Positions 31,533-59,605 are shown, counted from the stretch's first letter. The stretch: DNA of 64,000 bases from Schmidtea polychroa (GCA_044892525.1 CM097885.1:18726001-18790000); one strand, 5' to 3'. Program-made: numbers and translations. The notes: generated from the sequence alone by a model not told the origin.

Positions 31533-31978
31533 TGGACCCCATGAAGAAGTTCTGGTAGGACTTTGCGAAATACATAGCTGAAGCAGCTCGTCAAGCAAAA
31601 AGGGCAGAGTCACTCGTCCCACGATGCCGAAGAATGGAGGCAACGTGGTTCCGACTTGATCATGTCAAAAAAAGTTAAATAAGGGAATCGAAGCAATGGA
31701 GAAGAACTGAGCCGAAAATCAAGGGATCATTCATGATCGAAAAATCACAATGAATAATAAAACTCCTAGCTGGAATACACACATATATATGCAAATCTGG
31801 AGCGAGTTTCAAGCTATTCTGAAACATAATTGTTTCCAGCTTTCGACCCCCTTTTAACACGTCTGCCAATAGATTTTCCAGCAGTTAAGAAACCAGCCTA
31901 ACCGCGACCTGGAAAATTCGAAAGAAAACAAATCCGAAGTTGGAAGCATACCGAGAAACTAAATCCAGAAAATTCTAA
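31533..31978 (+). pseudogene. Decayed copy of the 'TWF' coiled-coil family
   Basis: After acceptor ttttattacAG|TG: DPMKKFW*DFAKYIAEAARQAKRAESLVPRCRRMEATWFRLDHVKK..KKPA*PRPGKFERKQIR; not in the ORF track because of stops. Confidence 0.6.
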
Positions 31979-32282
31979 CATTGATAAATTTTTCATGTTT
32001 TTTCTTTGCACACTTTGCATATTAATATTAATAAATATTTTGGTTTATCAAACTGTTTGAGTTTAAAAATTTGTAGTAATCATTTTAACTTAAATATGAA
32101 AGATTGTTAAATCAGGTATTAATAACAAGAAGAGTGAGTAAAATATGAGTCGTAAAAAATATTTCATCATCTTGAAGCCAAAGAAAGTGTGAGTTTCACA
32201 AAATAATTTAAATTAATAAGGAATACGACGAAACAATAAATTGAACGCGACTTTTTTAAACAAATAAATGTATAATATGAAT

Positions 32283-32479
32283 AATTTCGATTTATTTCGA
32301 TTTATTTCAATTTATTTCAATTTATTTCAATTTATTTCAATTTATTTCAATTTATTTCAATTTATTTCAATTTATTTCAATTTATTTCAATTTATTTCAA
32401 TTTATTTCAATTTATTTCAATTTATTTCAATTTATTTCAATTTATTTCAATTTATTTCAATTTATTTCAATTTATTTCG
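32283..32479. repeat. 10-bp tandem repeat (TTTATTTCAA)n
   Basis: About 19 units. Confidence 0.97.
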
Positions 32480-32521
32480 TTTACTTTTCGGTGTTTCAGA
32501 AGGTGGGTAAATTTCGAACAG

Positions 32522-32820
32522 CTACGTTGGCAGTGGTCGGATTTGTGCGGTTACCGCCGCGTCGATGACCCGCTGGTTCAGTTTGGTCTCCAATGCGCGT
32601 ACTTGAATCTTCAGAGCGTGGATTTCGATTTGATCTTGGTCTGCTTGGGACTGAAGCTGTTGGATTTGAGTCATTCGCTTTTTCATCTCGGCTGGACTGA
32701 ACCAAGTGCTTTCGAGCTCCCGACATCGCCCCTTAAATTTCGCGACTCTGGCCTGAAGGCCTTCCACTTGTTTTTGGACTTGCTCCCGGTCCTTCCTTAG
32801 GTTCTTGAATAATTTGAACA
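32522..32820 (-). CDS. Unknown coiled-coil protein exon, 'TWFSP' family (C-terminally shortened)
   Basis: RCRELESTWFSPAEMKK; strongly similar to 54011-54417; begins at acceptor ttgtAG|TG. Confidence 0.65.
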
Positions 32821-33160
32821 CTACAATTTAAAGAAATTATATATAGACACATGCAGATAATAATCATCTATTCGATATCAAACGTTCAATCTTATTCTAT
32901 ATCATTGGGTTCCCATCAAATAATAAAGTCCTCAAGACCAGTTTAAAACGAAAATCGTAAACGATTTTTTTAATATCCATCTAAAACCCAAGTACCATAA
33001 AAGGAATCAACGAAATAAACACAATATTGTTTTATTAATGGTAATCAATTCAAAACTCAAATATCCAAATGAAAATCAATGAAATGAATATAACAGAGAA
33101 AATCTCTCTGCGTAAAGAAACAGGAATCACCATCCATAGTCATAACAATCCTTGTGTGGC

Positions 33161-33452
33161 TCATAGGTCAGCCTTCCTAGGTCTTCCCCGTTTCTTAAAA
33201 GGGGTGGATCTGACTTCGGCCTCTTCGATCGGTGTTTCGGCTGCCTCTGCGCGAAGTTGGGCTTCGATCACCCGGAGCTTGTGTTGAGCGAACTCGATCG
33301 CCACGATGACCTGGTTGCGGGCCTTTATTAGCCAACCTCAGTTCACGACCTCAGTTCCACTCGTGGATCTTGTACTACACGTATCTGGTCCTGAGTCGGA
33401 TAATTGCTTCATCATACTGATCTTCCTCATTGCAGTTACTGAGTTGAGACAT
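33161..33452 (-). pseudogene. AT-hook protein paralog with stops and a frameshift/deletion
   Basis: MSQLSNCNEEDQYDEAIIRLRTRYV*YKIHEWN*G / IKARNQVIVAIEFAQHKLRVIEAQLRAE..TPFKKRGRPRKADL*; aligns with 54695-55060. Confidence 0.8.
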
Positions 33453-34968
33453 TTCTACATTGTTAAAGTTATAATTCCGTTTGTTGTCAGATTAATAATA
33501 ATTAAAACTCAATCTCAATTACGTCGAGTTCAAGTTAAATTAAAGTCGAGTTTAATTATCTATCTTTTTTTTCTTTTTGAAATTAATTTTCCCAATTAAT
33601 AATGAAAATAAAATTAATTTAAAACATTTAAATTATAGTAATTCATAAATCATTTCTAAAATTGCTATGTTAATTTATGTTTGTTCTACTGAGAGGTTTC
33701 AGCAAAATTATAAGCTCAACAATTTAAAATTATAAATTTTGGTTGTAAATAACTATTTTCAACAATTTACGAAATCAAACATACTTTTTCATGATGACCT
33801 AATGGTAGTGAAATTGCATGCATAAAACTATGGTTTTCACAAATTCAGAAGGAACACGGCAGGAAACCCTCGAGAATGATATCTATCCGCATGAGAGCTA
33901 TCGGTATCGCAGGAGTATCCAAGTTTGTGTATAATACAAAGGTAAAATTTTCTTTTCTTAAAACTTATAATGAGATGTCTAGGAAGAATTCCCTGTAGGA
34001 AGAATTCCGAATTAAAACTCTGGAATTGCCGATATGTATATCGAATTGTTTAGATGAACATTATTTCTATCAGTACTTTAAAATTCGAAAGGTTATTTAC
34101 GGAAAAGGACGACTGTCTTGTGAATTTAACATTTGTTTACCATAGTTAGAGATTTATTTAAGACCAATTACTAAATTATCAACTCATGAATTTGAGATAC
34201 CTATTAAGAATATCCACTTTGTTTGATTTACAATATTACACAACCAAATATTAGGGGAAATTTACCAATTATGATTTTTGTGATTCGAAATACCGATGGG
34301 CAATTACGAATATTAGTGTGATTTAGGCTACTATATAAACTTTGGAATAACCATCTACATTGAATGTTAATTAATTAAAGCACTGTGATCAGCTTACTTC
34401 TGGAGCTTTACTCCGTTTACTGAGCCTTAGTGTAGTGTGATGAGTTGATTTTGAGTTTATTATGTCGATTATTCATGTAACAAAAGTCAATTACGGAAAG
34501 TTGCTTGCTTTCGCGGCCACATTGTGTCCACTACGACGAGCCCTAGTGTTATGTAGGTTGATAATATACTATCGACATATAAATATTATGATAACTCAGT
34601 CAGTTCAGAGTGAGTTTACCGACTTAACTCCGTGGCAGATACCATGAAGTGGTGCGACCTCCACTGACACAAAAAAAAGAAATTATAATTGTTAGACGCA
34701 ATTAAATTCAAGTCTTCTTCAAGCATTTATTTTTATAACAACTTCAAAAATTGAGCCGTTTACTAGAATATTTAAACACCGAGGCATGATAATTATTAAT
34801 ATTAATGTAATTACTGGTCATACATTTAATTGATTTAATTTAATATAATATGATATAATTTAATATAGAATTTAAATATACAAATTTAACAGAAATAATT
34901 ATTTCTACTAACTGATCTCACTTCTACCATTTAACCATAATAATTTTATATAGAGATTTACTAACTCC

Positions 34969-37900
34969 TTACATCCCCCCTTCTTTAAAATGCTTTAACT
35001 TTTCTATATTCCTCGTTATTTTTCTCCCGTTTTCGTCTGTTAATAAATAACTTCTTTCATGATTTCGTTTTATTACTGTGTATGGTCCTTCATATCTCTC
35101 GTGATCTTTGTTTCTAATTTCTTGTTTCACCAATACTTTGTCCCCCACTTCTAAGTTCCTAGTTGTGCCAATTTCTTTCGCTTGCTGTCTTTTAGCCTCT
35201 AATTTCCGCATGATTTCATTTCTATTCACTTCATTATTACTATGCCATTGCGATCTATTAATCTTTCTTCCAAATATAATTTCTGCTGGACTCACTCCAG
35301 TAGTTTTTTGAGCTGTCGCATTTAAAACGTATTCTATATCAGGTATTAATTCTGCCCAGCTTTTTTTAACTCCTTCTCTAAGTGACGCGTTAATATAGTC
35401 TCTTATAATACGAAATTGTCTTTCAATTACACCATTAGTATTATGATGATACGGACTCGAAAATATCAACTCAATTCCTGCTGCCTTTGCTAGTTCTTTA
35501 ATGCTATTTGCTTCGAAATTTTTTCCACAATCAACATGTAGTTCCTTAGGGGCTCCAAATTTCAATATCCAATTATTTAACAAAACTGCCTTTATTGTAT
35601 TTTCATCTTGCTTTCTAATAGGAGTTAGAGATATGTATTTACTGTAATGATCGATTATTGCACAAATAAATTTTTCTCCTCTGAAGGTTTCTCTTAATGG
35701 ACCGCAAATATCCATGTATATTTTCTCCATAGGTTCTGAAGCTTGAATTACTTGGGTTTTTTCTTTTGACTTTGTAGTTAAAACTTTGTTTTTCTGGCAT
35801 GCTTCACATATTGAAATAGTCTCTTTTACTTCATTTAGCAAATCTTCCATATCAAAATTGTTCCTAATATATTTCATAACTTTTTCTACTCCTGCGTGGC
35901 ATAATAATAAATGTGTTTCCTTAATCGTTTCTCGTCTTTTTGTTTCTGGTATCCATATTTTGTTTTGATTGGTATAGATAATATTTCCTTTTAACATATA
36001 TTTATTATTTTTCCTTTCATGTATTTGATCTTTTATATCTTGTATTTCTGCATTATCTCTTTGCCATTCATTTCCATTATTTTCGGTCATCAATGTTAAC
36101 AATCTAGTTTTTAATCGCCCTGATTTGGGGTTATCATGGTCCATCAAACATTGTACACATTTGCCGCATGTGTTTCTAGACAGCATATCTGCATTCGTAT
36201 GCGCCGTACCTTTTCTGAACTCCATTTTTATGTCTAAACTGCTCAAGTAATTTATCCACGTTTGGAACTGTGCTGTTATCGGCTTCTTTGTCGTTAACAT
36301 AAAAGTTATTGCTTTATGATCAGTGCGCAAAACAAACCGTTTACCTTATAAATAATGGTTGAAATGGCGACAGAAATAATATATAGCCAAAAGCTCTTTT
36401 CGTGTTATACAATATCCTCTTTCATGGCTACTCATTGCATGGGATCCACATGCAATAACGTGTTCATGCCCCATTTCATCTCTTTGTGATAATACAGCTC
36501 CAATTGTATCAAAGCTTGCGTCTGTATCTAATATGAATTCTTTCTTGAAATCTGGAAATACGAGAATTGGCGCTGTAGTCAACGCCATTTTCATTTCTTC
36601 GAAAACTTTCTCACATTCCTCAGTCCAGATTATTTTTTCACTATTGCTTCCACATATGCTTTCTAGCGCTCTTGATTTTGTTGCATATTCCTTAATAAAT
36701 CTCCGATAATAGTTACATATACCTAAAAAGCTTCTCAAATTCTTTATACACTTAGGCCTCTGAAATGATTTAATAGCCTCAATTTTACTTTGATCTGTCC
36801 GAATCCCCTGACTGTTAATAATGTGCCCTAAAAACTTTACTTCGCTCTTTAATAACTGACATTTTTCTGGGTTGATTCTCAATTTAGCTTCCCTTATTTT
36901 CTCTAGAACTTTTCCAAACACATTGTAATGTTCTTCAATTGTTCTTGTAAAAATTAAAATATCGTCTAAATACACCATAACTCCTTCTTTCCATAGATCT
37001 TTCAATATTTTTGTCATTAATTCTTGGAATGTACCCGGTGCCGCCGCAATGCCAAAAGGCATTCTATTAAAACAAAATTGCCCTTCTTTAGTAGAAAATG
37101 CTGTCTTTTCTTGCGATTCTTTGTCCGATTTCACTTGATAATAAGCGTTCCCAAGGTCTATAGAACTAAAGTACTTAGATCCATGTAATGTATCTAGAAT
37201 TTCTTCTACATTCGGCATAGGAAAAGCTTGTCTTTCAGTAATCTTATTAAGCTGTCTAAAATCTAAACAAAGTCTGATATCTTTTTTGTCTTTTTTCCAC
37301 ACGCATACTAACGGCGTATTCCAAGGTGAATTACATCTTCTTATGATATCATTATTTTCTAAATTTTTTATAGCAGCATTTATTTTCTCCTCTAAATTGA
37401 TGGGTTGCCTTCTGGGTTTTATCATAATTGGCCCTTCTTTTGTGATGATTTTATGTGCAATTAAATCAGTACATCCGATATCCCAGTTATTAGCCATAAA
37501 AACACTTTTATTGTTTTTAACAATCTCTAACAGTCTTTTATTTTCGTTTAATCTTAGAATTTCTATTGCTTTTTGACTTCTCTCGTTATCTGTAATCTTT
37601 TCCCCAAATCTAGCTTCTATTTCACACACAAATTCATTATATCCTTCTTCATTTTGCTTGATGTAGTTTAATTCAATTCCAAACTCTTTCTGCAATTCCA
37701 CTCCGCCTATTTTATCTGGAACAATATTTTTAACTATTATAAATGTTATTTTTCTTTCCATATTACCAATTCTAACATCAATATATATTTTTCCGATTGT
37801 CTCTAATTTACTATCATTTGCACATCTTAACATCTCATCTGTTTTTATGATTTTCACATTCACTAATTTTTCCACAACTGCTTCTGCCATTACATTTACT

Positions 37901-37989
37901 CTTGCTCCTGTATCTAGTAAGCATTTCATTCTATACCACTGAATTTCAAGAGTTGTACTCGGTCTACCTTGCATTTTGTCATAACTCAA
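34969..37989 (-). pseudogene. Gypsy pol (PR-RT-RNase H-IN) split by one in-frame TAA at 36346-36348
   Basis: LLDTGA; RLCLDFRQLN; YLDD; DTDAS; HFNHYL*GKRFVLRTDHKA; integrase H..H..CEAC, MDICGP, HVDCG, GVIERQFR; GPY. Confidence 0.95.
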
Positions 37990-38360
37990 TTTCGGTCGTT
38001 TCCATTCATCTTTAGTGAAAATATTTTGCTCCTCTGATATTTCATTAATCTACCCAATTTCCTTTCTCTCTAATTTATCTTCTGCCTTCTTAATAAATTT
38101 ATAAACTTTTTCATTTACTATTTTATTATTATATTCTGCTTCTTCAATTTCATTATACTCTTCTTGATTCTTAGGATTATTATTATTATTTATTAAAGAT
38201 CGATCAGCATTAAAATAACTATAACATTTAAAATTATTTAAAGGAAACTTTTTAAAATTACAAATTTTATTACATAAAGGTTCTACATTATTATTTATAT
38301 AAGGATTATTTACATTATTAAAATTATTATGACCAATATTTACATCAATATCAAAATTAC

Positions 38361-38978
38361 CTAGTATATTGCTCCGATCATTGCCTCCCGTGTCGAAGCA
38401 TGTACTTTTGGGTGCTGAATATCCTCATATTTGTCTTCTGCATCATCTGAATACTCAAGTGGCATCGTCTCATCATTAGGTTCAATTGCTGCAATTGTTC
38501 TTCCTGGATTGTTGATCTTTTGTTGATAGCTTGTGGTTCGATGGGCATAATAATTATTGTTTCTCATGTTTGAATTAGTTTGAAACTTCCTTCTTTCCAA
38601 ATTTGTATAGCAGTCAATCTCCTTATGTCCACGTAAGTGACATCTCTGGCATTGAATCGTTGAACATTCTCGCCGTACGTGGCCTTCAACTCCGCATGCA
38701 AAACACGTCATTTTCTTTTTCATTTGGCATTCTCGACTCACATGACCAATTTTCTTGCATGTCCAGCATTCCAATTGTCGGTTACTGACGTTTTGCTGCT
38801 TGAAATTATTATTTCCGTTTACCATTCCTCTTTGAGCAACATCTCTGTAGCTTCTGTAGTTTTGAACAACCGGTGAAGTCTTCACAACCTTAATATGGCC
38901 CATAATTTTGTTTACCTTTTCTAATTTCTTTATTGTCGCTTTTATTTCTTCTGATGTTTTCAAGTCTTTTTCAAGCAT
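38361..38978 (-). CDS. C-terminal part of Gypsy gag with three CCHC zinc knuckles
   Basis: CWTCKKIGHVSREC, CFACGVEGHVRREC, CQRCHLRGHKEIDC; the ATG lies at the LTR/gag deletion junction. Confidence 0.9.
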   Translation of the reverse strand: MLEKDLKTSEEIKATIKKLEKVNKIMGHIKVVKTSPVVQNYRSYRDVAQRGMVNGNNNFKQQNVSNRQLECWTCKKIGHVSRECQMKKKMTCFACGVEGHVRRECSTIQCQRCHLRGHKEIDCYTNLERRKFQTNSNMRNNNYYAHRTTSYQQKINNPGRTIAAIEPNDETMPLEYSDDAEDKYEDIQHPKVHASTREAMIGAIY

Positions 38979-40928
38979 TTATTTTTATAACAACTTCAAA
39001 AATTGAGCCGTTTACTAGAATATTTAAACACCGAGGCGTGATAATTATTAATATTAATGTAATTACTGGTCATACATTTAATTGATTTAATTTAATATAA
39101 TTTAATATAATATGATATAATTTAATATAGAATTTAAATATACAAATTTAACAGAAATAATTATTTCTACTAACTGATCTCACTTCTACCATTTAACCAT
39201 AATAATTTTATATAGAGATTTACTAACTCCTTACAATAATATTGATAAATGCATGTCAGGCAGTGACCTGCAGTTGTCAAGGCTGTGGGCTCTATGACAA
39301 TGATGATTTTACTTTCAAATAAGACTCAAGACTGGCTTAGTTCGTGTATCAGAATACGAGCACTACGACCTGAGTCACTCTTGTGGAAAGGAAAAGAAAA
39401 AAAACATCGCAATATTAATGTATTAGAATTATAATAATACAAACATAATCGACAAATATCCTTTAACTTGGATTTTAACTTAGATTTAACTTGGATTCAC
39501 AATCGACAAATATGGTTCAAAACTTTTTGGCATAAAGAGAATAAGTTTGTGACGAAAATGTGGCGGTATATATACCTATTCTTGTGTGTTCGAGTACGTG
39601 TGTATGTATTGTTGCATAAAACAAACTCGAAATCTTTTTAATTCTAGAACATTTTATTTTTGATTTGTGATGATTTTAATGGCAATTCTTGTGCCATAAT
39701 TTTTGTTTTTATTTTTAAAATTTTATTTTTTAATTAGTTTTCGTTAAATTTGCCTCCATGATGGATTTAGGCATTTCCAGAACATTCCATATTAAATTAA
39801 AGTTAATTTTTATTTTAGAATCGTTTTTCTGAATTTTTTTCTTGAATTTTTATTTTTTAAACTAATTTATTTATTTTTATTAACTTTATTGTATTGAATG
39901 GCTTCCATGATGGATTTCGCCATTTTTATGAATTGTTCTGGATTTTTGGCTAGAATTTAGTATTTCTACAGTTTTTCTACATTATTCAAGTTTGTTTTTG
40001 TATTTTTATGTTTCTCTGTTATGTTTGAGTTAATTTCCTGTGATACATCTTGCATTTATTTGATTTTATTTGTAATTTAAATGTTTTTATTTTCTGTTAT
40101 TTTTCTACTAATTATTATTGTTTATTTGATGTTGTCTATTTTTATTTACGTAAACTTACTGCTGGGTGTGCATGTTATGTACCACCACATTTCATCACTT
40201 TTTCCAAGATTTTGGGTCTAGAATGCAGTTCTAGCCCAACACATGCTTATTAAATTACTAACTTAGAGGGTGTACGAATTTTTTTCGCCGAAGCTTTCCA
40301 CATATAGACACCCGAGTGTTAGGGCATGTTTCCTTCACTAGCTATCATCCACAGTGGGCACAAGGTGCAACAGTGTGAAATGTGCAGATAAACTGCTTAC
40401 AACTCCTCGTAAGTCCCAATGTAATGTTTTACTGACTTCCAGTTTAGCTTGGTGACTTGAGACAAAAAATTTTATGATTTTATTCATTGAAAGTATTGTC
40501 GTCTAGTGAAACTAGAAAACAAAAATCAAATTAGTGGTATGTCATAAAACTAATAAAAAGATTCTTACTTTCAAAGTCAAAGCGCCTTATTACAAAATTT
40601 AGAAATTTTGGTATACCAAAAAATTCTGCACTAAATTGTGACCGTTTATATACTCTAATTTTTGTTTGCAAGTATGTGTGCGTGCATTGATGCAGTAAAT
40701 TAAATTCGAATTATTTTAATTATATTTAATTTTGACTCTAATTTTTATCAATTTTTTATTATTTATGATTTTATTTAATTCGTTTTGCTTTCTTTGATTT
40801 TACTTCACTTAGGACTATATCTGTGTGCATTTCGATCGCAACCCACGTTTACACGAGTAACAAATCAGCTTTTGCAAAAAATACGAAAGGTATAAATGGT
40901 AAGATGATGAGGGTACAGTAAGAAAATA

Positions 40929-41133
40929 GGGCGCTACACCTTTTACGGTAACTCATAAACCCCAGGGAATGTTAGGCCATTGGAAATTCTTATGTTAGGG
41001 CTCACATTTTATTGACCCCATGGCGCTTGCGACGGACGTTTAGTGATTAAATAAAATAATTATGCTCAGTTATCAGGGGAATGTAGGTATTACCAAAGCA
41101 TTGTCAAGGTTTCCTATACACGAACCCACCAGT
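40929..41133 (+). ncRNA. Degenerate copy C of a putative structured non-coding element
   Basis: acaccttttacggta ... gctcac ... aacccacca in the same order as in 53617-53822(-). Confidence 0.4.
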
Positions 41134-41734
41134 TTTCAGGTTGAGTCTCATCGCTCCTTGTGAGCGGGGGATTTTGATGTCGGAAACATTGAGCAGAGAA
41201 ACACAGAGACTCCAATTAGATGAGTGGGAAGAAAGGTCTTTCGAATCCGGATCCGGTCTCTACTCCATGCGCTTTGACAAACGTACAATGATAATTTTAA
41301 AAAATCCGTATTTTAAGAACCAGTTCTTCATACCAAAATTATTTTAGCAACAGGCTTGACAGGACAGTGCGAATCCATAGCAGCACATTACTATATGCAA
41401 ATAGCCATTACTAAAGTTAAACTTAATAACGATTTTAGTTAAATGGATGAAAGCTTTTGAAGAAATTGTTTATAATAGAAAATTTAAAATAGAATTTATA
41501 TTTCTAACTCTTAATAATAATTTCCAAATTTCTGATTGTAAGTAAATTCTTAATAAATCTAAAATATATATTAATATATTAAGATAATTTTATTTCTAAA
41601 TTAAATTACGATAAATTAAATTTCTAAATTTGAAACATCATCAATTTAAAATTATTTTATTTTATTAATTTTTATTATTTTCGTTTGTTTAAAAATTAAT
41701 ATTGAAGTATAAAATTAAAATATATAAATTAAAT

Positions 41735-42922
41735 ATGACTGCCGACTGGAATTATGACTCTGATGATGATCAAAAGAAAAATAATTTATCTAGTACTTCA
41801 CGGAAAAAGTCAGGTTCAAGTAAATCACCTGAGTCAAAAGTTTTTTCAGATACTGATGGTGCAAACAATTTATCTAAGGGAATTAGCAATCGTTCCAAAA
41901 CTAATCCAACTCCTGATCCATCAACTTGTATTGGAATATTCGGATTATCGAAAAAAACTAGCGAGCGTACATTATGGAAGACTTTTGGGAATTTTGGTAA
42001 GATTAAAAGTGTATCACTTATTGTAGATAAGTTCACGAAGGAATCACTTGGATTTGCATTTATTAATTACGAAGTGCTAGATTCCGCATCAAATGCTATT
42101 AAAGAAACAAATGGAATGACTTTGGATTCTAAAGTTGTTCGGGTTGATTATAGCATAACAAAAAAGGCTTATACGCCAACTCCTGGCAGTGGTTATAAAG
42201 GAAAAATTATCAGCCGGGGAGCTAGAGATATGAAAAAAAATTTTAAAAGAAAATATTCACCGAGGTCCCGATCAAGAAGTACAAGCAGAAAGCGGTCAGC
42301 AATGAAATATTTAAGTTCAAGACATTCACCCGTTGCTCCAATGTATATTTCAGATAAGAAAGATTCATTTAGAAGATATGAATCTAGAAGGCATTCTCCA
42401 GAACCTCGCTTCGAAATGCACTATTCCTCACATAGAAATGTCAGAGACTACTCTCCAATAAATAGAGAACAAAGAGGCTTCTCTCCTAGTAGAGATGATG
42501 CAAGAAATTATTACTCTGATAGACCGATTTATCCAACAAGGAATTATTCTCCTCCAAGAGATTTCCGTCGAGGTTATTCTCCAAGAAATGATTTAAGAGG
42601 TAACTCGCCATTCAAAACAAAATACAGTGAGTTTTGTCCCAGTGAAGATATGAGAATCGGTTTTCAGCCTATGCCTAATGATATAAATGACTACTCTATT
42701 AGGCAAGTGAGGGAGTTTTCTCCTGCAAGAAATGGTGGACATGTTTATTCCTCAGTTAAAAACTTTAGGAATATCAGCCCTATGAGGAAAGGTGTTAGAG
42801 TTTATTCTCCAACCAGGGAGTTAACCCCGGTTAGGTATGGGTACAGACAATATTCTCCCGTTAGAGTTGAAAAATATAAAGATCGCATCGCGGTTGACGA
42901 TAATCAGCAATTTTTTTACTGA
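41735..42922 (+). CDS. tra2: Transformer-2-like RRM / RS-rich splicing regulator, intronless, 395 aa from first ATG
   Basis: PDPSTCIGIFGLS..TSER.L..F..FGKI..V.LIVD..SLGFAFINY..NGMTLDSKVVRVDYSITKKAYTPTPG is the Tra2-specific RRM plus linker; RS tract follows. Confidence 0.9.
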   Translation: MTADWNYDSDDDQKKNNLSSTSRKKSGSSKSPESKVFSDTDGANNLSKGISNRSKTNPTPDPSTCIGIFGLSKKTSERTLWKTFGNFGKIKSVSLIVDKFTKESLGFAFINYEVLDSASNAIKETNGMTLDSKVVRVDYSITKKAYTPTPGSGYKGKIISRGARDMKKNFKRKYSPRSRSRSTSRKRSAMKYLSSRHSPVAPMYISDKKDSFRRYESRRHSPEPRFEMHYSSHRNVRDYSPINREQRGFSPSRDDARNYYSDRPIYPTRNYSPPRDFRRGYSPRNDLRGNSPFKTKYSEFCPSEDMRIGFQPMPNDINDYSIRQVREFSPARNGGHVYSSVKNFRNISPMRKGVRVYSPTRELTPVRYGYRQYSPVRVEKYKDRIAVDDNQQFFY

Positions 42923-48179: not shown

Positions 48180-48760
48180 AATTAAAGTAAATTATGGCTC
48201 AAATTTTTGAATTACAGTAAATTATGGTCCAAATTTTTCAATTACAGTAAGTAATGGGTCTAAAAATTAAATTACAGTTAATTATGGTCCTAAAAAATTA
48301 AATTACAGTAAATTATGGTTCTAAAAAATTAAATTACAGTAAATTATGGCTCAAATTTTTAAATTACAGTAAATTATGGCTCAAATTTTTCAATTACAGT
48401 AAATTATGGTTCTTAAAAATTAAATATACAGTAAATAATGGTTCTAAAAAATTAAATTACAGTAAATTAAGGTCAAAAATTTTGAATTACAGTAAATTAT
48501 GGTTCAAATTTTTCAATTACAGTAAGTAATGGGTCTAAAAATTAAATTACAGTTAATTATGGTCCTAAAAAATTAAATTACAGTAAATTATGGTTCTAAA
48601 AAATTAAATTACAGTAAATTATGGCTCAAATTTTTCAATTACAGTAAATTATGGTTCTTAAAAATTAAATATACAGTAAATAATGGTCCAAATTTTTAAA
48701 TTAAAGTAAATTAAGGTTCTAAAAATTAAATTAAAGTTAATTAAGGTCCAAATTTTAAAT
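48180..48760. repeat. ~29-30-bp tandem array (aattacagtaaattatggt(c/t)c(t)aaaaaatta)
   Basis: About 20 degenerate units just inside the left TIR. Confidence 0.9.
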
Positions 48761-49074
48761 TAAGTAATCAATGGTAAAAAATTTTAAATAAGTAAATTAA
48801 AGTAAATTAAAGTAAATTAAAGTAAGATTTTAAAATTTAATTACAAAATAATAGAAGGTGTTTGAGAATTGAAATTTTTTAATGAAATTTTTTATGAAAT
48901 AATTTTTAAGTAATTTTTAATAGAAATTTTAATGAATTATTTTTCAATGGTAATTTTTAATGGAAATTTTTATGAAATATTTTTCAATGATAATTTTAGA
49001 TGGAAATTTTTAAGATAATTTTTAATGAAAATTTTTATGAAATATTTTTCAAAGATAAATTTTAATAATAATTC

Positions 49075-49745
49075 AACAACAAACCAACAACTTAGTACCA
49101 ACAACCAGTAACTTACGAACATGTATTAACAACCAGATACCTACAACTAGTTACTAACAACCAGTTACCTGATACCAAGTACCTACAACTAGATACTAAC
49201 AATATGTTACCAGATACCAAACACTTACATCTAGTTACTAACAATCAGTTACCTGCTACCTAGTACTTACAACTAGTTACTAACAACCAGATACCTGATA
49301 CCAAGTACTTATAACTAGTTACTAACAACCAACTACTTACAACTAGTTACTAACAACCAGTTACCTGCTACCAAGTACTTACAACAAGATACCAAGTACT
49401 AAGCACTGTCAACTAGATACCAAGCACTGACAACCAACATCAACCAGGTACTAAGCATTAATTACCAACTACTAAGTACCTACCAAGTACATACAACCAA
49501 CATCAACCAGATACCTACAACTAGATACTAACAACCAGTTACCAAGTACCTACAACCACCTACCCATTAACTAGCTACAACCAGCTAACAACTAGCTACC
49601 AACTACCAAGTACTAACAACCAACAACCAGCTAACAACTAACTACCAGATACCAACTACTTACAACCAACAACTAAGTACTAACAACCAGCTAACAACTA
49701 CATACCTAGTACTAAGCATTGTCAACTAGATACCAACCAGATGAC
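49075..49745. repeat. Strand-biased degenerate array (caactagttactaacaaccag / taccaagtac)
   Basis: Direct inspection; related tracts at 50260-51100 and, reversed, 11915-12270. Confidence 0.85.
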
Positions 49746-50129
49746 CACATGAAATTATTGGTTAAATAAGTAAATTAATATTTAATTTTTAAATTAACTA
49801 ATCAATGGTCTAAAATATTAAAGTCAATTTAAGATGAAAGTTTTCTGGGATTTTCAATGTTAATTTTAGATGCAAATCTTCGTCAATTAATCAATGACCA
49901 CATGAAATTATTAGTTAAATATGAAAATAAGGATTATATTTAGTTGTTAAATTAAGAAATAAAGGATAAATAGGTAAATTAAGGATAAGTAAATTAAAGA
50001 AAACAATGGTTTAAATTTTAAATTAAAGCTAAATGAGTAAATTAAAGTAAGATTTTTAAATTTATTATCAAAAGATTGAATAACCACCAACTTTTTTGAG
50101 AAATGTAATTTTTAATGAAAATTTAAATG

Positions 50130-50131
<2 letters not shown>

Positions 50132-50200
<69 letters not shown>
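50132..50200. repeat. (AAT)n microsatellite
   Basis: Direct inspection. Confidence 0.97.
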
Positions 50201-50203
<3 letters not shown>

Positions 50204-53200
50204 TTAATAATAATTATAATAATAATTAAACATTTACCAACAATCGGTTACTAAATATTTTTAACTAGGTGCTAACAAATAAGTACCAAATACTTACAAC
50301 TAGATACCAAGTACTAACTAACTCTCAAACAACCACATACTTACAACTAACTACTTACAATCAACTAAATATTCTTTATTATATTTTATGAAATGTATTT
50401 TTTAAAATTAATTTTTTATCTATATTCAAAAATATATTTAATTACAATCAGTAGAAAAACCTTTTCAAAATGTCTAAATTTAGCAAAAATGTTGATTTTC
50501 ATCAAAAAACCACAACTCAACCACTTTAAAACACCACGTGAAATTCAAAATAATTTAAATTACAATGAAAGACTAATGAATTCTAATTTACAAAACATTC
50601 TTCTTTTAAATGATAACTACTGAATTATTATGACAAAGTAAAAATCACATTCAATAAATACTTATTGTTGATCAGTTTTATTATATATACTCTGAGTTTA
50701 TCCGACAGGATGTTTTGACCCCCCTAAGGGTACAGGTCGTAAGGGTATTAGTCGTAAGGTTGCTGGTCGTAAGGATATTGTTAACTCTCAACCCCCACCT
50801 ACCCATTAACTACCTAACAAGTACTAACAACCAAGTCTCAAACAACTAAATACTAAACACTTACAATCAACTAACAACCAGGTACTAAGCATTATCAACC
50901 TACAACTATATAACAACAATCAGTAAACAACACTGTACCAACTACCAAATACAAGATACCAACAACTTAGTACCAACAATCAACTAACAACACATAAAAA
51001 TAATAGCAATTAAATACAAAATATTCTTCATCACATACAATATCTTCTTATCAAAATCTAAAAAGTCGACCAACTACTTACAACCAACAACTATGTACTA
51101 ACAAATTAATCTTTAAAAGAAAAATACTCATCACTTGAAAATTAGATGGAAAATTAATTGAACTCAAGGCATCAATAACTAGGTAAAAATTGATTAAATT
51201 ATTGTAAAAATTTAAATTATTCAAAATATACCAAATAATTATTATAAAAATTAAATTAATGGACAAGAAAAAATTCTAGTCATTAATCATCCAGTAAATA
51301 AAAAAAAATATTGATCATTCAAGTTAATATGAATCAACTAAGATAATAAATTAATAAAAATTTTGAAATAAGATCTAGTAGATAATTGATTTAGATTGAA
51401 TAAATTAATTGAAATAAAATTAATTTTAAGTATTTTTTTTAAAAGTACTCAAATTGATTGACTTATTTCTCAATATATTCAAAAAATCAGTATAAATTCA
51501 TTACAATTATCAAAGTCAGCAATCTACAATAAAAATAATTATCATTAAATTCCAAAAGAGACTAGATAGCTAATGATAACATCTAACAAACCAGTATTCA
51601 AAAGATTCCCATCGAAACCCTTCCCTCATTAAAAGCAACCGACTATATCTTTCTTAAAATGAAATATTTCCCATATTAACCGACTATATCCCTTTAAAAA
51701 TCATATATTCCCATCTTAACCCATCCCTCATTAAATTTAACCGACAATATCCCATCTTATCCGATCTCTCAGCAAATAATTCTACCCTTTTAAACATCTA
51801 TCCGATTATATCCCTTATTTTCCCTAAAGATTTCACCCACTTGAGCCCTTTAATATATATCAATCCTCTTAAAAACCTCAGAGAACTTCAAAAATATGAC
51901 TTTTAATTAATTGTTATAAAACCAGACAAATAGTAAGAGCCCATTAAAAGATCAAAATTCACTAAATTTTCTACAAATATTTACCATCAAATAAAAATAC
52001 ATCCAATTATCAAGAAATTAATTAAATTTATCTTAGAATTAGCATTAAATTATTAAATATTCATTCAATAAACATGAAATTTGCAAAAATGTTAGAAATC
52101 CACAAAAATAATAGAAATTTACAAAAATCAAAGAAATTCACAAAAATGATAAAAATTCATGAAAATGATAGATATCTACAAAAAATTAAGGAAATCCGCA
52201 AAAATAATAGAAATTCACAAAAATGATGGAAATTAATGAAAATGATAGAAATTCATAAAAATGATAGAAATTCATAAAAATGATAGAAATTTACTTGAAT
52301 AAAACCATCAACTTTAAAAATTATCAATACCTTAAACATCAAATTTGCCTAAATAATCATTCAAATAAAAGCATTAAATGATCAGTACCCTTGCGACATG
52401 TTGAATGTGAGTAGTACCCTTGTGAGCAATACCCATAGGGGGACAGAATATTTTGTCGGATAAACTCAGAGTATATATTAATTAACTCATTCAAATTTAT
52501 CATTGAATTAGTCAAATTATCGTAAATTTCGATAAAAAATCTAAAGTGGTAAGCAATGTAAAGAGAAATATTCTTTAAACTTTGATAGGACCAAGGAGAC
52601 ACCCTCACTATAGTCAGAATAATCCATGCTTTTTTATTGAAGACCGCCTTTTTCTATTGAAATTCTCAGGACCAAGGAGACCCACCTCACTATAGTCTGA
52701 AAAATCCTTGGCTTTTTTAGTGTAGACCACCTTTTTCTATTGAAGTTCTCAAGACCAAGGAGACCAACCTCACTATAGTGCGAAAAATTCCATACTTTTT
52801 TAGTGGTAGTCGGATTTTTGTATTGAAATTCTCAGGACCAAGGAGACCCCCTCACTATAGTGTGAAAATTCTATGCTTTTTTAGTGGTAGTCGGACTTTT
52901 GTATAGAAAAAAATTTTTTTGTATTGAAAATCCCAGGACCATCGAGACCCCCTCACTATAGTCTGAAAATTCCATGCTTTTTTAGTGGTAGTCGGATTTT
53001 TGTATTGAAAAAAATTTTTTTTGTATTGAAAATCCCAGGACCATCGAGACCCTCTCACTATAGTGTGGAACAATTGCGTAATAAAAAAGTTGCCGCAAAA
53101 AAAAAGTTGCCGCAGGGGGGTTTGCGGCAGTGGGCTCCTAACTACCTACTAGTCACTGCCACAGAAATTTACTATAAAAGCGAGAAGCAAAATTCATTTA

Positions 53201-53616
53201 GCAGAAACATTTGTTCAAGCAATTTTGCTTAGAATAAAATATCAAATTCAAAGAGAGATTAAAAGCTATAAAGCTTCTTGGTGAATTGATCACAGAAAAG
53301 GGAATCCAACCAATATTTTGAACCGTGAAGTTATTTGAATATATTTAATTTTCAATAAAAAATTTAATTGCACAACCCGGCCACAAGAACCAGCATTTCT
53401 GCCTATCCTACTCGTTGGAGATTAAATTTTCAGAGGGTTTAGTATAGGTAACGCTAGATCAAACTTGATCTAGTCGATCGCGCAAACTTCGGGAAATCCC
53501 TCCTTCTTGTCCCAAACTTTAAATACAGTGCTATGAGCAATTAGAGGGGATTCTGTAGGGACTCAGAACATTACTACCAGTGGTCTCAAGAAGTAATTTA
53601 TTTTATAATCTATATT

Positions 53617-53822
53617 GGTGGGTTACTGGTGGTCGAGTGTTTAAGTGCTGTTACCAGCGTAACCCAGGATACAACATTATTTTTCCGCTTGGTACCCGTT
53701 GAGTAATCAACGTTGGTACTGTACCAAGGGGTGAGTACTCGCAAAAAGTGAGCGCATCAAGGCACTATAATTGTCGAGTACTCTATGGGTTCACGGACTA
53801 CCGTTAGAAGGTGTGTGTCCGA
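53617..53822 (-). ncRNA. Putative structured non-coding element, copy A
   Basis: Stems GAGTACTCG/CGAGTACTC; GTACC-AA-CGTTGA(ttac)TCAACG-GGTAC; TGGGTTA..CTGGT/ACCAG-TAACCCA; motifs shared with 59984-60250. Confidence 0.55.
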
Positions 53823-54010
53823 TTTATCAGGTCCCTTATCAAAATTGTTTTCCCAACCTTACGCACAAACTCTCACTTCTCAGGCAATCACAAAAGGTAT
53901 TGGATATTATTTTAATATTACAAAATCTGTGTTATTTTAATGCTACAACAAGGTACAAGACACACTACCAAATGTACACAAAACAACATCTCGTAACAGT
54001 TCAGATCGGC

Positions 54011-54417
54011 TTATTGGCGGAGCCTGGCCTTTAGTTTCTTTAGTTTCTCCCGAATGTTCCGTCCAAGCCGCTTTCGTTTAGGCTTACTTTCAACTACTGG
54101 GGGATATATTGTTGCGAGCTCCACGGCCAGTGGCCGTATTTGTCTTGCCACGGGCTCCTGCACCAACTGCTCATTTCGCGCAGTTTCGAGCGCCCGCACC
54201 TGTAGTTTCAGGGCGCGGATCTCCATTTGGTCTTGTGCGGCCTGTGCCTGCAGCTGGAGGATCTGGGTTGTTTTCTTCTTCATTGCTTCGGGACTAAACC
54301 AGGTCCCCTCAAACTCCCGACATTTTCCTTTCAACTTGTCCACCCGGATTCGGAGTTCATCGGTTTGCTGCTGGGCCTGCTCACGATCCTTGCGTAGGTT
54401 CTCCATCAATTTATACA
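54011..54417 (-). CDS. Unknown coiled-coil protein exon, 'TWFSP' family, basic NLS-like C-terminus
   Basis: Open frame KCREFEGTWFSPEAMKK...SKPKRKRLGRNIREKLKK; preceded by ctaat + polypyrimidine + AG|TG acceptor; GC-rich island. Confidence 0.72.
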
Positions 54418-54694
54418 CTAAAAAGAGAGAAAAAAAATTAGTTTCCATTACATCCAAAAAGAAAGTTAAAACCAATGACTAGTAAAATTAATGAATCGAT
54501 ATTAGCATTTCTACTGAGGTATCTTCATACTCTTCCATCTATCAAGTAATGCACAGAACAAAAGAAAACACTTTATTCGAGAATAAACACCCGACGTCTA
54601 TTGGTATACAAAACGAAATTAAATTAAACACAACGACTGCTAATAGTTCATTCATATAAACGTGAGTTGTCTAAGTTAAATGAATTGTCCACAA

Positions 54695-55060
54695 TCACAA
54701 TGGTTGCTTGCGGGGCCTCCCCCTCTTCCGCGGAGTTACCTCGGCATTTTCGAGCTCCTCTAGGGATACCCCTTCTCTCTGGACCCGAAGTTGCAGTTCC
54801 AATCTCTTCAGCCGGCTCTGAGCGATTTCCACATCAACGGCCGCTTGATCTCTGGCCTCTCGGAGTGCGTTGTTCTCCGGCTCCGTCTTCACCCATGCCG
54901 GGGCATCCGGTTCTGGACCACTTCTGATAACTGGACCAAAGTTGTCAAGGTCCAATCCACGATTCCAGTCATGGATGCGGTACCAAATATACCGCGTACG
55001 GAGCCGGGTAATCATTTGTCGGTGGTTCTCTTCATCGCTGGAGTTACTTGATTGTGACAT
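54695..55060 (-). CDS. 121-aa unknown protein with C-terminal AT-hook (KRGRPRK)
   Basis: Intact ATG-stop ORF; canonical AT-hook core; paralog at 33161-33452. Confidence 0.75.
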   Translation of the reverse strand: MSQSSNSSDEENHRQMITRLRTRYIWYRIHDWNRGLDLDNFGPVIRSGPEPDAPAWVKTEPENNALREARDQAAVDVEIAQSRLKRLELQLRVQREGVSLEELENAEVTPRKRGRPRKQPL

Positions 55061-56099
55061 ATCTATGATTATCCAAAATATAAGACTGTTGATTATTACA
55101 TAGAAAAAAAATTGTTGAAACTCTAGGCTTAAGATTAAATTTCTACTAGCAATCCATAGCCAGGGAGTTCACCTAAGGGACTTTACTACAACATCTATCT
55201 TATCAAAGGCATAACCCGTTGATACCTGCCTCAGTGGTGACTTAGCCGACAACAGTCAAACAGAACAGACAACCCCCAGAGAAAAAATCTAAAATTTTGT
55301 ATTTTCGTCTGCGGTTTATTTATATTCATTATAATATTCGACCTGACGACGTAGTTTCTTCTTAAAATTGGAATTAAGAAGCAAATTCGATTGTTTTAAT
55401 GGTTCAAAACCATTAATTGATGGTTTACATTATAGTATACTATTTAAAATTTCTAAATTATCTAATTTAGATTTTTAATTTATTATTAACCCAATTGGCT
55501 TCAAAGAAAATCTTCGTCGACGGAGAGATTCGTTGTTGAATCGTATTCCAACGCCTCTTCGTCAGCGAAGCCGTTCATAATAGTCTAATCCGCTTTTTCA
55601 TATATTACTCCTCCTTCTTTAGCTTGTTCAGAATCTACTCCATCAACCACATTCCGTCGGAAATAATTGCTTTATCTGTGACTGGCTCCTCAGCATTACG
55701 GAAGATTTCGTTGTTGGTTGGTACGAAGAATGATCGATCTGAGAGATCTCCCTTCACGGTAGATTATTTTAAGATATGGTAACTCAGGTCTAGTTTAAAA
55801 TTTAACATTCTTTGTCAAGATTAGCAACAGTGATTATAATGATGGTATTTATGATTAATAATGATTATAGGGCACGAGTCCCAATATTAACTAGCATGCC
55901 AGGGTTCATGGCAATTCTACTTATAAAGCGCATTATGTAGTCCTACTTTGAATCACCTATTATAATTTTTAAAACCCAAACAAAAAATTTTTAGATATAC
56001 TTTGTGGATGGATAATTTCGAATTTTATTTTGATCCTAAGAATCAACTATGCTGTATGAGTAGGTGTTTATGGATTATGTTGCGGAGATTGGGAGTAGG

Positions 56100-57490
56100 T
56101 ATACTTTATATTTGTATGCTTATAAATTATGTTTTAGTAGATAATGATAATGGATGAGTATATCGTTATAGATTATATTTCCAACTTGAAATTAATAAAT
56201 TGTGTTCCTGAACATGAAAATAGTGGCAATTTCTGGTTATGTGTAAAATATATTTTAACTTGTTGTTCGTGCTTTGGAGTGGGGTGGTTACAAATTGTAC
56301 TTATACTTAATATATAGCCATGGTTTATAGTTGTATTTTAGAAAATTATAATCTTAACATTTCAACTTAATTATACTTTATAAATAGTTTAAATTCTTTA
56401 CACTTATAAGTTACGTTTTCAACTTGGAAGTTATTTGTATTTTATAGTGGGGAATTATACATTATATGTTGTACTTCATCTATGATCATAGTTTATAGTT
56501 ATATATAAATTATAATTTTAGCCTTAAACTTTAGTTATACTCTATAAATAGATTATAATCTTTACACTTATAAATTATGTTTTTAACTTGAAATTTATCT
56601 ACATTTCATAGTGGGGTGATCATAAATTAGATTTTCTATTTAATATATAGTTATTATAGTTATACATTTATAAATTAAAATTTTAACATTAAAATTTAAG
56701 TATACTTTAGGAATAAATTATATCTTTTACGCTTGATAAATAGTTATAGTATTAGTTATGGGCTTATAAATTTTATTTCAACTTAAGATTTAATTGTACT
56801 TTACGAATGGATTATATTTTATAATTATGATTTTATAAATTATATTTTTAACATCGAAATCCAATTACATTTCCTAATTAGAGGCCTATAACTATATTTC
56901 GAACTTCGAAATGATTATATTTTTGTAATTCTTGGGTTTAAAATTTATATTTCTATACTTAGTAAATAATTATAATTTATGATTATGGATTTGTAAGCCA
57001 TATTTCTACCATTAACGCTTAATTATACTCTATACTTAGATGCTTTATATTTATATTTCCACACTCAGGAATGACCATACTTCATAATTATGGGTCTAAA
57101 GATTATATTTTTACTCTCAATGAATAATTTTAGTTCCAATTACCAACTTGTATATTATATGTTTAACATCAAAGGTTTGGTTACACTTTACATTTACATG
57201 TATATAGATTACATTTCTAAATTCGAAAGTGATTATAATTATGAGATTATAAATTATATTTTTTACATCAAAGATTTAATTATACTCTATAATTAGAGGT
57301 TGGTAAATTATATTTTCGAACTTAAAAATGATTATATCTCATAATTAAAGGTTTATAAATTATACTTTTACGTTTAATAAATACTTATAGGTTATAATCG
57401 TGGATTTATCAATTATATTTTCAACACCAAGAATTTGGTAATACTCTATAGTTAGCCGTTTATAGATTACATTTCGGAATTTAAAAGGAG
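56100..57490. repeat. Degenerate AT-rich tandem array (tataaattatattt..aactt..aattatact motifs, ~40/80-bp period)
   Basis: Recurrent motifs by eye; period not measured. Confidence 0.6.
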
Positions 57491-58992
57491 TTATATACTA
57501 CAATTAGGGGTTGCTTCCATGGCCCCACTGTGACCACTTCCACAAACCTTAATGTTATGTGCTAAGTCAACCCTTTACGGCTGACCTTTAATAAATACAA
57601 AGAGTCAGACGGAGGTTTTCCTCGACCTAACTCCATGGCAGGACCATGAAGTAGTTCGACCTCCGAAGGACCCGAACAAAAAAGGGACGGTATAATAATA
57701 GATCGATATAATATTAATAATGCATGTCTGCATGTCCTATGAATTTAAATTTTAATAAATTGGATGCAGGACCGAACAACGACGCAGTAATACCAGTACG
57801 CCATTGAACATTCGTATATCATGGAAAAAATCAAAAGCAAGAGACATCAAAATATGCAATTACTTTAATTTTAACCTGAATAAATCATCACTACAATAAA
57901 AATGAAAAATAGATCCTCAGCCCAATAAAAATGAAAAAATAAATTATCAATATTATAAAAATGAAAAAATAAATCATCACTACTCACTATTTGTGTTGAC
58001 AAGATTTTTCTCAAAAATTGGCATAAAATGGTGATTGAATTATGCCCGAACTGTATACTGTGAACATAGCACCTGAAAATCCAACGTAGTGAGAAAACGC
58101 CAGATCGATTTTGATTTTCATGGAATAGGCAAACACAAGTGAACAGATTGTGGGTTCGAGTGTCAACACTACATGCAGATACATACCAACGATAACGTAA
58201 TAGTAAGCCCGTGACAGTTCTACACAAATCCATCGATGAGAAACCATTGGGTTATCTACTGCAAATCACCCGCAGTAGCACTCGCCAGGGAATCGTTCCA
58301 TATGCCATGCTCAACATTTTGTCATAATTTTCCGTTATCTGCCATAACAGTAGGTGAGTTCACCAGCCGATAATCTTGGGTTAGCAAAATCATCCCGTCA
58401 TACTAATATGTTAATTTCCGATTTCTGATACAATTCTCTGTAAATAATGGAGCTTGATGCATGCGACAGATAGTTAATAGCGTACGATCAAAAATCTTGA
58501 GTACACATTTTGGAATTACGGAATTTTAGCATTATAAGAGTTTATTATTAAAATTGATTAAATTTGTGAATTTGTTAAATTTTCATGTCTAATAATTGTC
58601 TAGAAAGGGTGAAAAGAGAGTTTACGAGACAAACCCGACTAATTTTCCTTCTAACTAACAAGTCTTTAAACATATTTGTAATGTTTCCGAGAAAATATTT
58701 AAATATTATTGTATTCACATAACAACAGGGCCTCTTTTTCGATAATAAATCACTATACCTAATGAGGCGATGCCCTATGTTACTGACCCGTTTTCTGTTA
58801 TTAAATTAGACAGAATGGTAAAGCTCGATTGTCTGGGGGGAATTTCTCTTGTCCGCCGACCTGTTTTTCTTTTCTTGTCTGAATAGTATAAGCAAATGGT
58901 ATGAAATTCGAGACAGTTAATGACTGGTTAATTCGAAATGATGGCTTTGTAAATCTAGTCTTCTTGTGATTATCTTTATTTCTTCTTTGCAG

Positions 58993-59605
58993 TTACCAGA
59001 TATGCTACCAGGTACAAAGACCACTCTCAGACCCTGCTTTTCTTGCGCAGACAAGAATGCTATAATCAAAGACCTACAAGCCCAGATCGGTCGATATAAG
59101 AGAAAGATCGACGAGTTGGAAGGTACATGGTTTAGCCCAGTACAGATGAAGGAGGTACAAAAGAAACTGTACCGTAGCGAACACTGTCGCGACGCTCTAA
59201 TCACGGAAAGCAGATCTCAACGCAGCCTAATAAAAGAGCAATCGGAGGCTCTCCACAAAGTCTATCTACAGGCAGCTACCACCCGAAAAATCGTCCGCAT
59301 CCCAATTCATGGAGCGGACAACTTCTTTCGATCCGTCACCTCCAGCCAAGAAGCCTTGTCGCGAGTGTGTGGAAGCCGACCTTTCATCCAAGCCTACTGA
59401 TGTGATCTTCACCGGAACCAGCAAGGTGTTGCCACCTATCGCGTCTACGCCTGCGGCGCAACCAAATACACTGCTTGCTTCAAAACCCAAGCGACGGCAA
59501 CTATCGAGAGCCGAGCGCAAGAAGAAACAACGAGAGCGAGTAGCTGCTAAGGAGAGAAAACAATCGGCAAATGCTCCTGTTAACGCAAACAGTCTGCCAC
59601 TATAA
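58993..59605 (+). pseudogene. Divergent 'TWFSP' family gene split over two overlapping frames
   Basis: Acceptor ttctttgcAG; KIDELEGTWFSPVQMK; second frame ends ASKPKRRQLSRAERKKKQRER, like the tail of 54011-54417. Confidence 0.65.

Follow-up and report, generated by a model that had tools for sequence, protein, structure and literature searches.

The TWF exons of the window

The window analysed here, a 64,000-nucleotide (nt) stretch of the Schmidtea polychroa genome (GCA_044892525.1 CM097885.1:18726001-18790000), harbours four coiled-coil exons with a common TWF motif, which we assign to a protein-coding gene within the long terminal repeats (LTRs) of giant Gypsy retrotransposons of the Burro type. 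An earlier description made without searches (the sequence-only reading) had presented them as a four-copy orphan gene family, and the motifs lie where it placed them: RMEATWFRL at 31637 (+), RELESTWFSP at 32713 (-), REFEGTWFSP at 54310 (-) and DELEGTWFSP at 59119 (+), which we number copies 1 to 4. Scanning for E.TWF, TWF[SR], RGRP and [ST]WF.P returned eight matches, namely these four motifs, two AT-hook-like RGRP sites and two unrelated ones. A T-rich AG directly precedes each exon start (31533, 32820, 54417 and 58993), and the acceptor form AG/TG (the slash marking the splice junction), claimed for three copies, is present in copies 1-3. The exons are also the GC-rich islands they had been said to be (0.45-0.53 against 0.29 for the window). 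We sorted them into family A (copies 2 and 3), family B (copy 4) and family C (copy 1), with a family D that has no copy in the window. Copy 2 matches relatives of copy 3 at E 1e-36 to 1e-63, family A and B proteins match pairwise at E 2e-6, and copy 1, weakly similar on its own (E 0.06), has many counterparts genome-wide (113 of 150 scored candidates). The likeness of the four copies is not due to chance, and the proposed diversification into subfamilies holds.

Copy 1 (31533..31960, +) belongs to the old family C and is decayed: stops and frame breaks interrupt the exon behind an AG/TG acceptor at 31531-31532. Its similarity to other family-C loci extends over 31452-32298, and no LTR ends of its own were found. 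A 10-bp satellite (32281..32487) forms the tail-to-tail junction with copy 2. The latter sits in a family-A LTR remnant (32500..40241, -) that starts with TGTTGGG at 40241 and has lost its 3' end at the satellite. This LTR (locus L253) retains a TATA-like promoter box (39565..39576, -), downstream of which the leader donor is degenerate, and it is split by a nested, unrelated 4.5-kb Gypsy element (34690..39235, -) with 277-bp LTRs 95.7% alike, a 5-bp target duplication and a reverse transcriptase (RT) 39% identical to that of Burro. The copy-2 TWF exon (32500..32820, -) belongs to an older family-A subfamily, has an AG/TG acceptor, is truncated 3' and encodes no Met before the motif. Copies 2 and 3 are preceded by a second exon, overlooked before, which encodes an AT-hook-like RGRPRK (open reading frame 1, ORF1). 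In copy 2 it (33161..33452, -) has stops and a frame break, and its acceptor AG lies two bases 5' of the ATG.

Copy 3 occupies a family-A LTR remnant (53616..58029, -) whose right end reads ...CCCACCA at 53616 and which has lost its first ~680 bp, TATA box included. What remains of its leader exon (57988..58029, -) ends in A and is followed by a GTGAGT donor from 57987. ORF1 is here an open 121-residue frame (54695..55060, -) with the acceptor two bases 5' of the ATG and an AATAAA ~120 nt past the stop. The family-A TWF exon (54011..54417, -) has an AG/TG acceptor and is shorter at the 3' side than its relatives. At 53796..53811 (-) there is a 16-nt motif that recurs in the LTRs of families A and B, 180-260 bp from their end. 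Copy 3 is a mosaic: its ORF1 is nearer to that of element G1 (dN, nonsynonymous divergence, 0.18 versus 0.28 to element E1), and its TWF exon is nearer to that of E1 (0.06 versus 0.15).

Copy 4 lies in a family-B LTR remnant (58056..60252, +) with its right end at 60252 and its 5' part and promoter missing. The exon (58993..59727, +) has two tandem acceptors, its own ATG at 59002, a CxxC, a basic segment and an acidic-aromatic tail. Its end had been set at 59605, which is too early, as coding homology reaches a stop at 59727 through frame breaks near 59320 and 59593. The basic tail ascribed to three copies is clear in copies 3 and 4 and decayed in copy 1; in copy 2 it has been removed by the satellite. 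On this evidence all window copies are broken relics, and none looks able to make a full protein. The copy-3 and copy-4 LTR remnants abut head to head at 58030-58055, both without 5' ends, and a 59-bp perfect inverted repeat (53558-53616 and 61252-61310) brackets the block that they form; the repeat possibly represents DNA transposon ends, and no target duplication was seen.

A Burro-type host element with thousands of LTRs

We searched the 781 Mb genome (four large contigs). First-look candidates numbered 6,420 for copy 3, 6,105 for copy 4 and 6,282 for copy 2 (150 scored each); for copy 1 there were 459 candidates, and 113 of the 150 scored were matches. A codon pattern for the motif had 1,742 exact matches, against none for the control. 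The supposed family of four thus runs to thousands of copies. Relatives of copy 3 cease to match sharply at 53616, with the same terminal letters at 26 of 30 loci and mostly unrelated flanks beyond, as expected for a repeat end.

Taking pairs of matches 25-37 kb apart as candidate elements, we found the TWF exon in both LTRs of E1-E4 and G1 (family A), F1 and F3 (family B) and D1 (family D), the LTRs of a pair being 97.6-100% alike. Two other candidates, E5 and F2, were rejected as tandem or segmental duplications. Elements F3, D1, E1 and G1 measure 29.3, 30.6, 34.7 and 35.1 kb, with LTRs of 3.8-5.6 kb paired TG...CA, and all four elements with both flanks (E1, G1, D1 and F3) are bounded by a 4-bp target duplication. 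In these four the primer-binding site (PBS), which we take to resemble a tRNA-Pro site, begins 7-8 nt past the LTR; upstream of their 3' LTR there is no purine-rich polypurine tract, and a short stretch partly complementary to the PBS is found instead.

Pfam domains of the interior comprise gag CCHC zinc knuckles, a viral fusion glycoprotein and protease, RT, RNase H and integrase in families A, B and D, the env-like fusion glycoprotein (PF24664, E 1e-63 to 1e-72) lying between gag and protease in all four scanned elements. Cargo domains include ankyrin and MATH in A, B and D, and BIR and RING in A; RING is weak in D, and BIR was not among the scanned B and D ORFs. This anatomy agrees with that of Burro/GYPSM1 of planarians, described in the review text consulted as a giant Gypsy with long LTRs, env between gag and pol, and MATH/TRAF, BIR, RING and ankyrin domains (PMC6431247), and for this reason we consider the host to be of the Burro kind. 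The assignment is based on length, LTR, target duplication and PBS, gag-pol order, env position and cargo, not on identity to the reference Burro1-4. BCL2-like and dUTPase-like motifs were not listed by Pfam at E 1e-3 and 1e-4, although the annotation in the review, as far as its consulted text tells, partly used HHpred (PMC6431247). Rfam gave no match in 36 kb.

The TWF gene is thus almost certainly a gene of the Burro-type LTR. Copies 2-4, and probably copy 1, are not orphans but LTR remnants of 29-35 kb env-bearing Gypsy elements, and the mobile element suspected behind them, far from being unannotated, matches a published one, with the Burro domain set around the gene in the paired elements. 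Between families A and B/D the RT is 88% identical, compared with ~24% between families for the TWF protein. ORF1 was found only in family A (2/2 A elements versus 0/3 B/D elements). Internal accessory ORFs stand in tandem in G1, D1 and F3, where 18 of 20 starts (five of the 20 chosen by homology) have an AG 0-3 nt ahead of the ATG, as against 28-31% of all ATGs; in G1 alone this is true of 8/8 first Met codons. AATAAA or ATTAAA follows within 260 nt of the stop in 17 of 20 accessory ORFs, a count with no control comparison.

A genome pattern search found 401 LTR-PBS junctions (control, 0) against 1,659 family-A promoter motifs, and because of this disparity many copies are probably solo LTRs. 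Family C is the least well anchored in Burro LTRs: AG/TG is present in 9 of 14 anchored rows (the window copy counted twice), locus L192 has LTR-type ends on both sides of the exon, and L190 and L191 have a right end. One locus (L160/L194, G000:C3:56824300-56827300) is a natural in-frame chimera that joins a family-A N-terminal half to a family-B tail and LTR end, from which it follows that families recombine inside the TWF gene. More distant TWF families are present in the same genome (L221-L231), with an LTR-like end 550-1270 nt downstream in four of five rows printed. TWF-bearing LTRs are also contained in a 15.8-kb tandem array (L048-L050) and a 36-kb duplicated segment (L121-L125), and such duplicates mimic LTR pairs in match lists.

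Leader exon, probable split start codon and selection

Of 50 distinct family-A contexts 45 retain the acceptor AG, 44 of them as AG/TG (five loci without an anchor omitted), and intron positions -30 to -12 keep 34-66%. In several A subfamilies Leu or Phe replaces the first (internal) Met, yet the protein sequence upstream of the motif is conserved, so the start codon must come from elsewhere. Family-A LTRs have E-box-like and TATA-like sites at about +660, and a GT[AG]AG donor follows 81-93 nt past the search motif in 26 of 32 distinct promoter contexts (8% in shuffles), with GTAGGT in three further ones. The last leader base is A in 25 of the 26 donor contexts (31% in shuffles); since the acceptor side supplies TG, the predicted join reads ATG. 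An ATG also occurs within the leader, but its frame is not conserved (phase 1 in 16, phase 2 in 6 and phase 0 in 4 of 26) and often meets a stop. The upstream exon that had been missing can accordingly be placed as a short leader in the same LTR, to judge by promoter-proximal donors and intron-less copies. A start codon split across the intron, rather than a coding upstream exon, would account for the common AG/TG phase. Two proposals were rejected: GGTATAT at +655 as a donor used with an upstream ATG (in E4 and G1 that frame is interrupted by a stop, and a TATA box is the better reading of the site), and a uniform phase 1 for all acceptors (phases 0, 1 and 2 occur).

We then consider the intron-less copies. 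A search for the join pattern gave 19 matches against one in the control, three of which, representing two events, have a promoter 86-93 nt upstream. L263 and L264, identical at 1,560 of 1,561 bp, are the LTR pair of a single insertion with PBS and target duplication. On either side they match their relative L187, whose 2,663-nt GT...AG intron is precisely what they lack. The join reads ATG; a deletion at the shared TAG would keep the G. L273 is a second leader-TWF join event, from another subfamily. L282 is a solo LTR with a target duplication in which the leader is joined to the ORF1 exon. Such copies are best read as reverse-transcribed spliced RNAs. The joins place the TWF gene and ORF1 downstream of the LTR's own promoter, and together L263/L264, L273 and L282 indicate that one leader is cis-spliced to two alternative exons. 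Cis-splicing with a split ATG is, in our judgement, very probable for family A. L206 was rejected as a spliced copy, being a microhomology deletion, and for L176 the mapping showed no more than a deletion. Another donor-like site, 230-640 nt 5' of ORF1, yielded three join-pattern matches against one in the control.

In families B and D a CCAAT-type box and TATATAA are present in 8 of 9 and 2 of 2 LTR starts, followed by a donor 54-57 nt past the TATA box in 7 of 9 and 2 of 2. Both families use their own ATG (28 of 29 contexts in B), and neither has a fixed acceptor phase. We place putative TATA promoters at about +660 in A and at +340 to +510 in B and D. The same leader may also serve ORF1 and the internal accessory ORFs, and solo LTRs could express the TWF gene alone. 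Contigs from runs that we guessed to be RNA (X1, X6 and X7 with X2; X1, X6, X8 and X9) had no GT..AG joint among the joints shown (15 of 27, and 13), a result uninformative on expression. A-rich loose ends in X6 at LTR +355 and +394 may mark the poly(A) site of the last internal ORF, though X2 shows a genomic A-run there.

The TWF gene is real and under purifying selection. Silent sites are unsaturated in 12 of 36 family-A pairs and 6 of 28 family-B pairs, for which the ratio of nonsynonymous to synonymous divergence (dN/dS) ranges over 0.04-0.17 and 0.03-0.12, respectively; the remaining pairs are saturated, with proportions (pN/pS) of 0.05-0.34. Variants common to several copies have pN/pS 0.08-0.14, and private variants 0.34-0.42 (usable loci 24/30, 25/30 and 14/20). 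The dN/dS comparison that the sequence-only reading had proposed hence gives 0.03-0.17, far from 1. ORF1 has dN/dS 0.04-0.28 in 10 pairs, after five rows with E4, where a stop shifted the codon alignment out of register, were dropped and L007 was left out. Together with the exact leader-exon joins, the low dN/dS bears out the proposal of an accessory protein that a mobile element or endogenous virus expresses by splicing.

Possible function and relation to known systems

AlphaFold models the TWF protein (mean predicted local distance difference test score, pLDDT, 79; predicted template modelling score, pTM, 0.32) as two helices (residues 2-38 and 42-92) with a kink at the motif, followed by a basic helix at 119-138; the ORF1 model is of low confidence (pLDDT 68). 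Families B and D add a CxxC and a conserved, Phe/Leu-rich acidic-aromatic tail, a candidate nuclear export signal. From the basic segment we infer nuclear localisation. A profile search of 1.84 billion representatives gave 15 matches, 14 of them with the motif and most with an Arg-rich segment, fused to unrelated host domains; very Arg-rich segments mark distant TWF homologues. Unnamed gene models (P0002-P0015) fuse a distant TW-x-P exon to unrelated host domains. Since the best matches of P0015 in this genome are at most 42% identical, P0002-P0015 may come from another species.

The explanation that we favour as a whole, with a probability of about 0.55, is that of an LTR accessory gene of Burro-type elements, with a split ATG in family A, whose product acts in the nucleus on the element's own unspliced RNA. 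The LTR promoter would make an RNA with a strong 5' donor and, further on, successive ORFs whose ATGs each have an acceptor close by. Spliced forms would yield the accessory proteins, the A of the family-A leader and the TG of the exon forming the start codon, and the unspliced 30-kb RNA would still have to leave the nucleus. The strong 5' donor and the many acceptors are the reason for supposing that the element needs export of unspliced RNA. The coiled-coil TWF protein with its basic helix could act on that RNA in the manner of Rev and CERV. An oligomerising helix and an Arg/Lys-rich segment typify Rev-type factors, and it is on this account, and because the TWF gene is the LTR gene common to A, B and D while ORF1 was found only in A, that the role is favoured. 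It is a guess that we place somewhat below even odds. CERV of the C. elegans element Cer1 has a predicted leucine zipper and nuclear localisation signal and is needed for export of unspliced RNA, according to the portion of the report consulted (PMC10309623).

Several observations weigh against this explanation. With regard to the gene, family C has no intact element among those examined, and only some of its loci have LTR-like ends. With regard to splicing, 16 of the 19 join-pattern matches are not leader joins; the L263/L264 evidence consists of LTRs, PBS and target duplication, not of the interior; L282 and L273 have no near-identical unspliced relative, so that only L263/L264 was checked to the base; the loci examined included no intron-less copy of families B, C or D; and transcription starts are predicted, not mapped. 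With regard to the product, family A has no acidic-aromatic tail that could be an export signal, and the basic segment may be only a nuclear localisation signal. Similarity to a characterised protein, which the sequence-only reading had named as evidence against it, did not appear in Pfam (only sub-threshold coiled-coil families), in a PDB sequence search (best E 0.1) or in fold searches: Foldseek had no match at E 0.001, and VIA returned only generic coiled coils (Z at most 6.8, root-mean-square deviation 7-23), where a family not listed is not excluded. A homologue search with one family-A protein gave 38 candidates, none at E 0.01, and an ESM Atlas search that covered ORF1, not the TWF protein, had no usable match.

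The same gene and splicing could instead produce a Tas/Tax-like or bZIP-like protein that regulates transcription from the LTR promoter, perhaps jointly with the family-A AT-hook protein; we consider this rather unlikely. The coiled coil and basic helix of the AlphaFold model would suit such a regulator, as would the tail of B and D, of a type characteristic of activation domains, and the RGRPRK of the neighbouring LTR gene, which is likewise constrained. The basic helix, however, lies C-terminal to the coil, 25-80 residues off, unlike the arrangement in bZIP proteins, the tail is missing from family A, and no transcription-factor match was returned by Pfam, fold or PDB sequence searches. Quite improbable, to our mind, is a product directed at the host (silencing, apoptosis or ubiquitin pathways), like the Burro TRAF/IAP/RING cargo, or a particle or nuclear-import factor. 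The element does carry several host-modulating domains, as the consulted review text has it (PMC6431247), and divergence between families that is so much greater in the TWF protein than in RT resembles that of host-conflict genes; against this, purifying selection within families is strong, no host-derived domain is present, and a motif invariant across families suggests a partner encoded by the element.

Expression of the exons by spliced-leader trans-splicing of a polycistronic RNA, rather than from the cis leader, is highly improbable. Flatworms trans-splice and resolve operons, and leaders ending in ATG are reported in the consulted part of one study (PMC12582326), which would fit the tandem accessory ORFs and the AG close to their starts. 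A leader ending in ATG, though, would be out of frame at AG/TG, and the conserved cis donor (26/32 promoters) and exact cis joins speak for the leader in the LTR; for the internal ORFs trans-splicing may still apply. That the exons are host orphan genes, or neutral GC-rich LTR sequence with a coding appearance, has next to no probability: of the 15 profile matches the 14 with the motif are mostly fused to host domains, but the fusion partners are unrelated and look like annotation artefacts, and sharp LTR ends, paired LTRs and dN/dS far below 1 refute both ideas for families A, B and D.

Extending the favoured explanation, we can picture Burro as a retrovirus-like element of the complex sort. 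Its LTR would amount to a spliced gene locus complete in itself, with one leader for up to eight accessory ORFs and a split-ATG, Rev-like regulator, and its solo LTRs would form a dispersed, self-sufficient family that would supply the regulator in trans and tune Burro in planarian tissues. We hold this extension to be unlikely.

Burro/GYPSM1 (Jurka 2007; Grohme et al. 2018, via PMC6431247) has the same 29-35 kb size, long LTRs, domain set and very high copy number, and the review text consulted makes no mention of LTR protein genes, a leader exon or splicing. Burro is reported to be de-repressed in planarians under smedwi-2 RNAi (PMC8532177). In the consulted portions of PMC6431247, PMC11410931, PMC8532177, PMC10558129, PMC7264820, PMC12582326, PMC2585583 and PMC10309623, LTR genes, leader and split ATG go unmentioned. 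No paper on Burro LTR genes was found in the literature searched, although figures or supplements of Grohme et al. 2018 and Jurka 2007 may already show the ORFs. Burro is known; conserved spliced protein genes inside a Burro-type LTR are a real and, within that literature, apparently undescribed feature. Splicing of a subgenomic RNA also creates the start codon of Drosophila gypsy env, with AT on the donor and G on the acceptor side in the account consulted (PMC2585583), whereas here A is joined to TG, the LTR contains both exons, and a small coiled-coil protein is encoded rather than Env. Like the TWF protein, CERV (PMC10309623, as consulted) and HIV-1 Rev are accessory proteins made from spliced mRNA of a Gypsy element or retrovirus, and plant LTR retrotransposons have conserved additional ORFs for which retroviral-accessory-like roles are proposed in the text consulted (PMC7264820). 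CERV and Rev are encoded in the internal region, unlike the TWF protein, and no homology appeared in library searches, which included no direct CERV comparison. Coding ORFs that overlap an LTR are found in sag of mouse mammary tumour virus, HIV nef and the foamy-virus 3' ORFs; these lie in U3, are spliced and need the promoter of the upstream LTR. By the predicted transcription start the TWF ORF is not in U3, for the leader spliced to it is found just past the TATA box of the same LTR, 2.7 kb 5' of the exon, so that one Burro LTR has a predicted promoter, intron, ORF and poly(A) signal.

LTRs are usually read as non-coding control regions and solo LTRs as inert, whereas in this highly abundant element they contain one or two conserved protein genes together with these predicted signals. 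The scheme is a first concrete model for the expression of Burro cargo, which the named junctions and the split ATG make sharply testable, and it offers a single knock-down target for studying the nuclear exit of a 30-kb unspliced RNA. For annotators it holds a warning, as the strong acceptor is drawn into chimeric host gene models. The window copies themselves are ordinary relics.

Other features of the window include an open 596-residue hAT transposase frame with BED finger and dimerisation domain (17333-19123, +) and an uninterrupted 409-residue frame with an RNA recognition motif (RRM) and an RS-rich region (41693-42922, +), presumably TRA2-like. There are also fragments of a proteasome subunit (14467-15264, -), a Tc1-like transposase (29711-30418, +) and what we take to be an actin-like gene (30384-30900, +), and further decayed LTR-retrotransposon pol fragments lie at 8069-11147 (+) and 16407-16859 (+).

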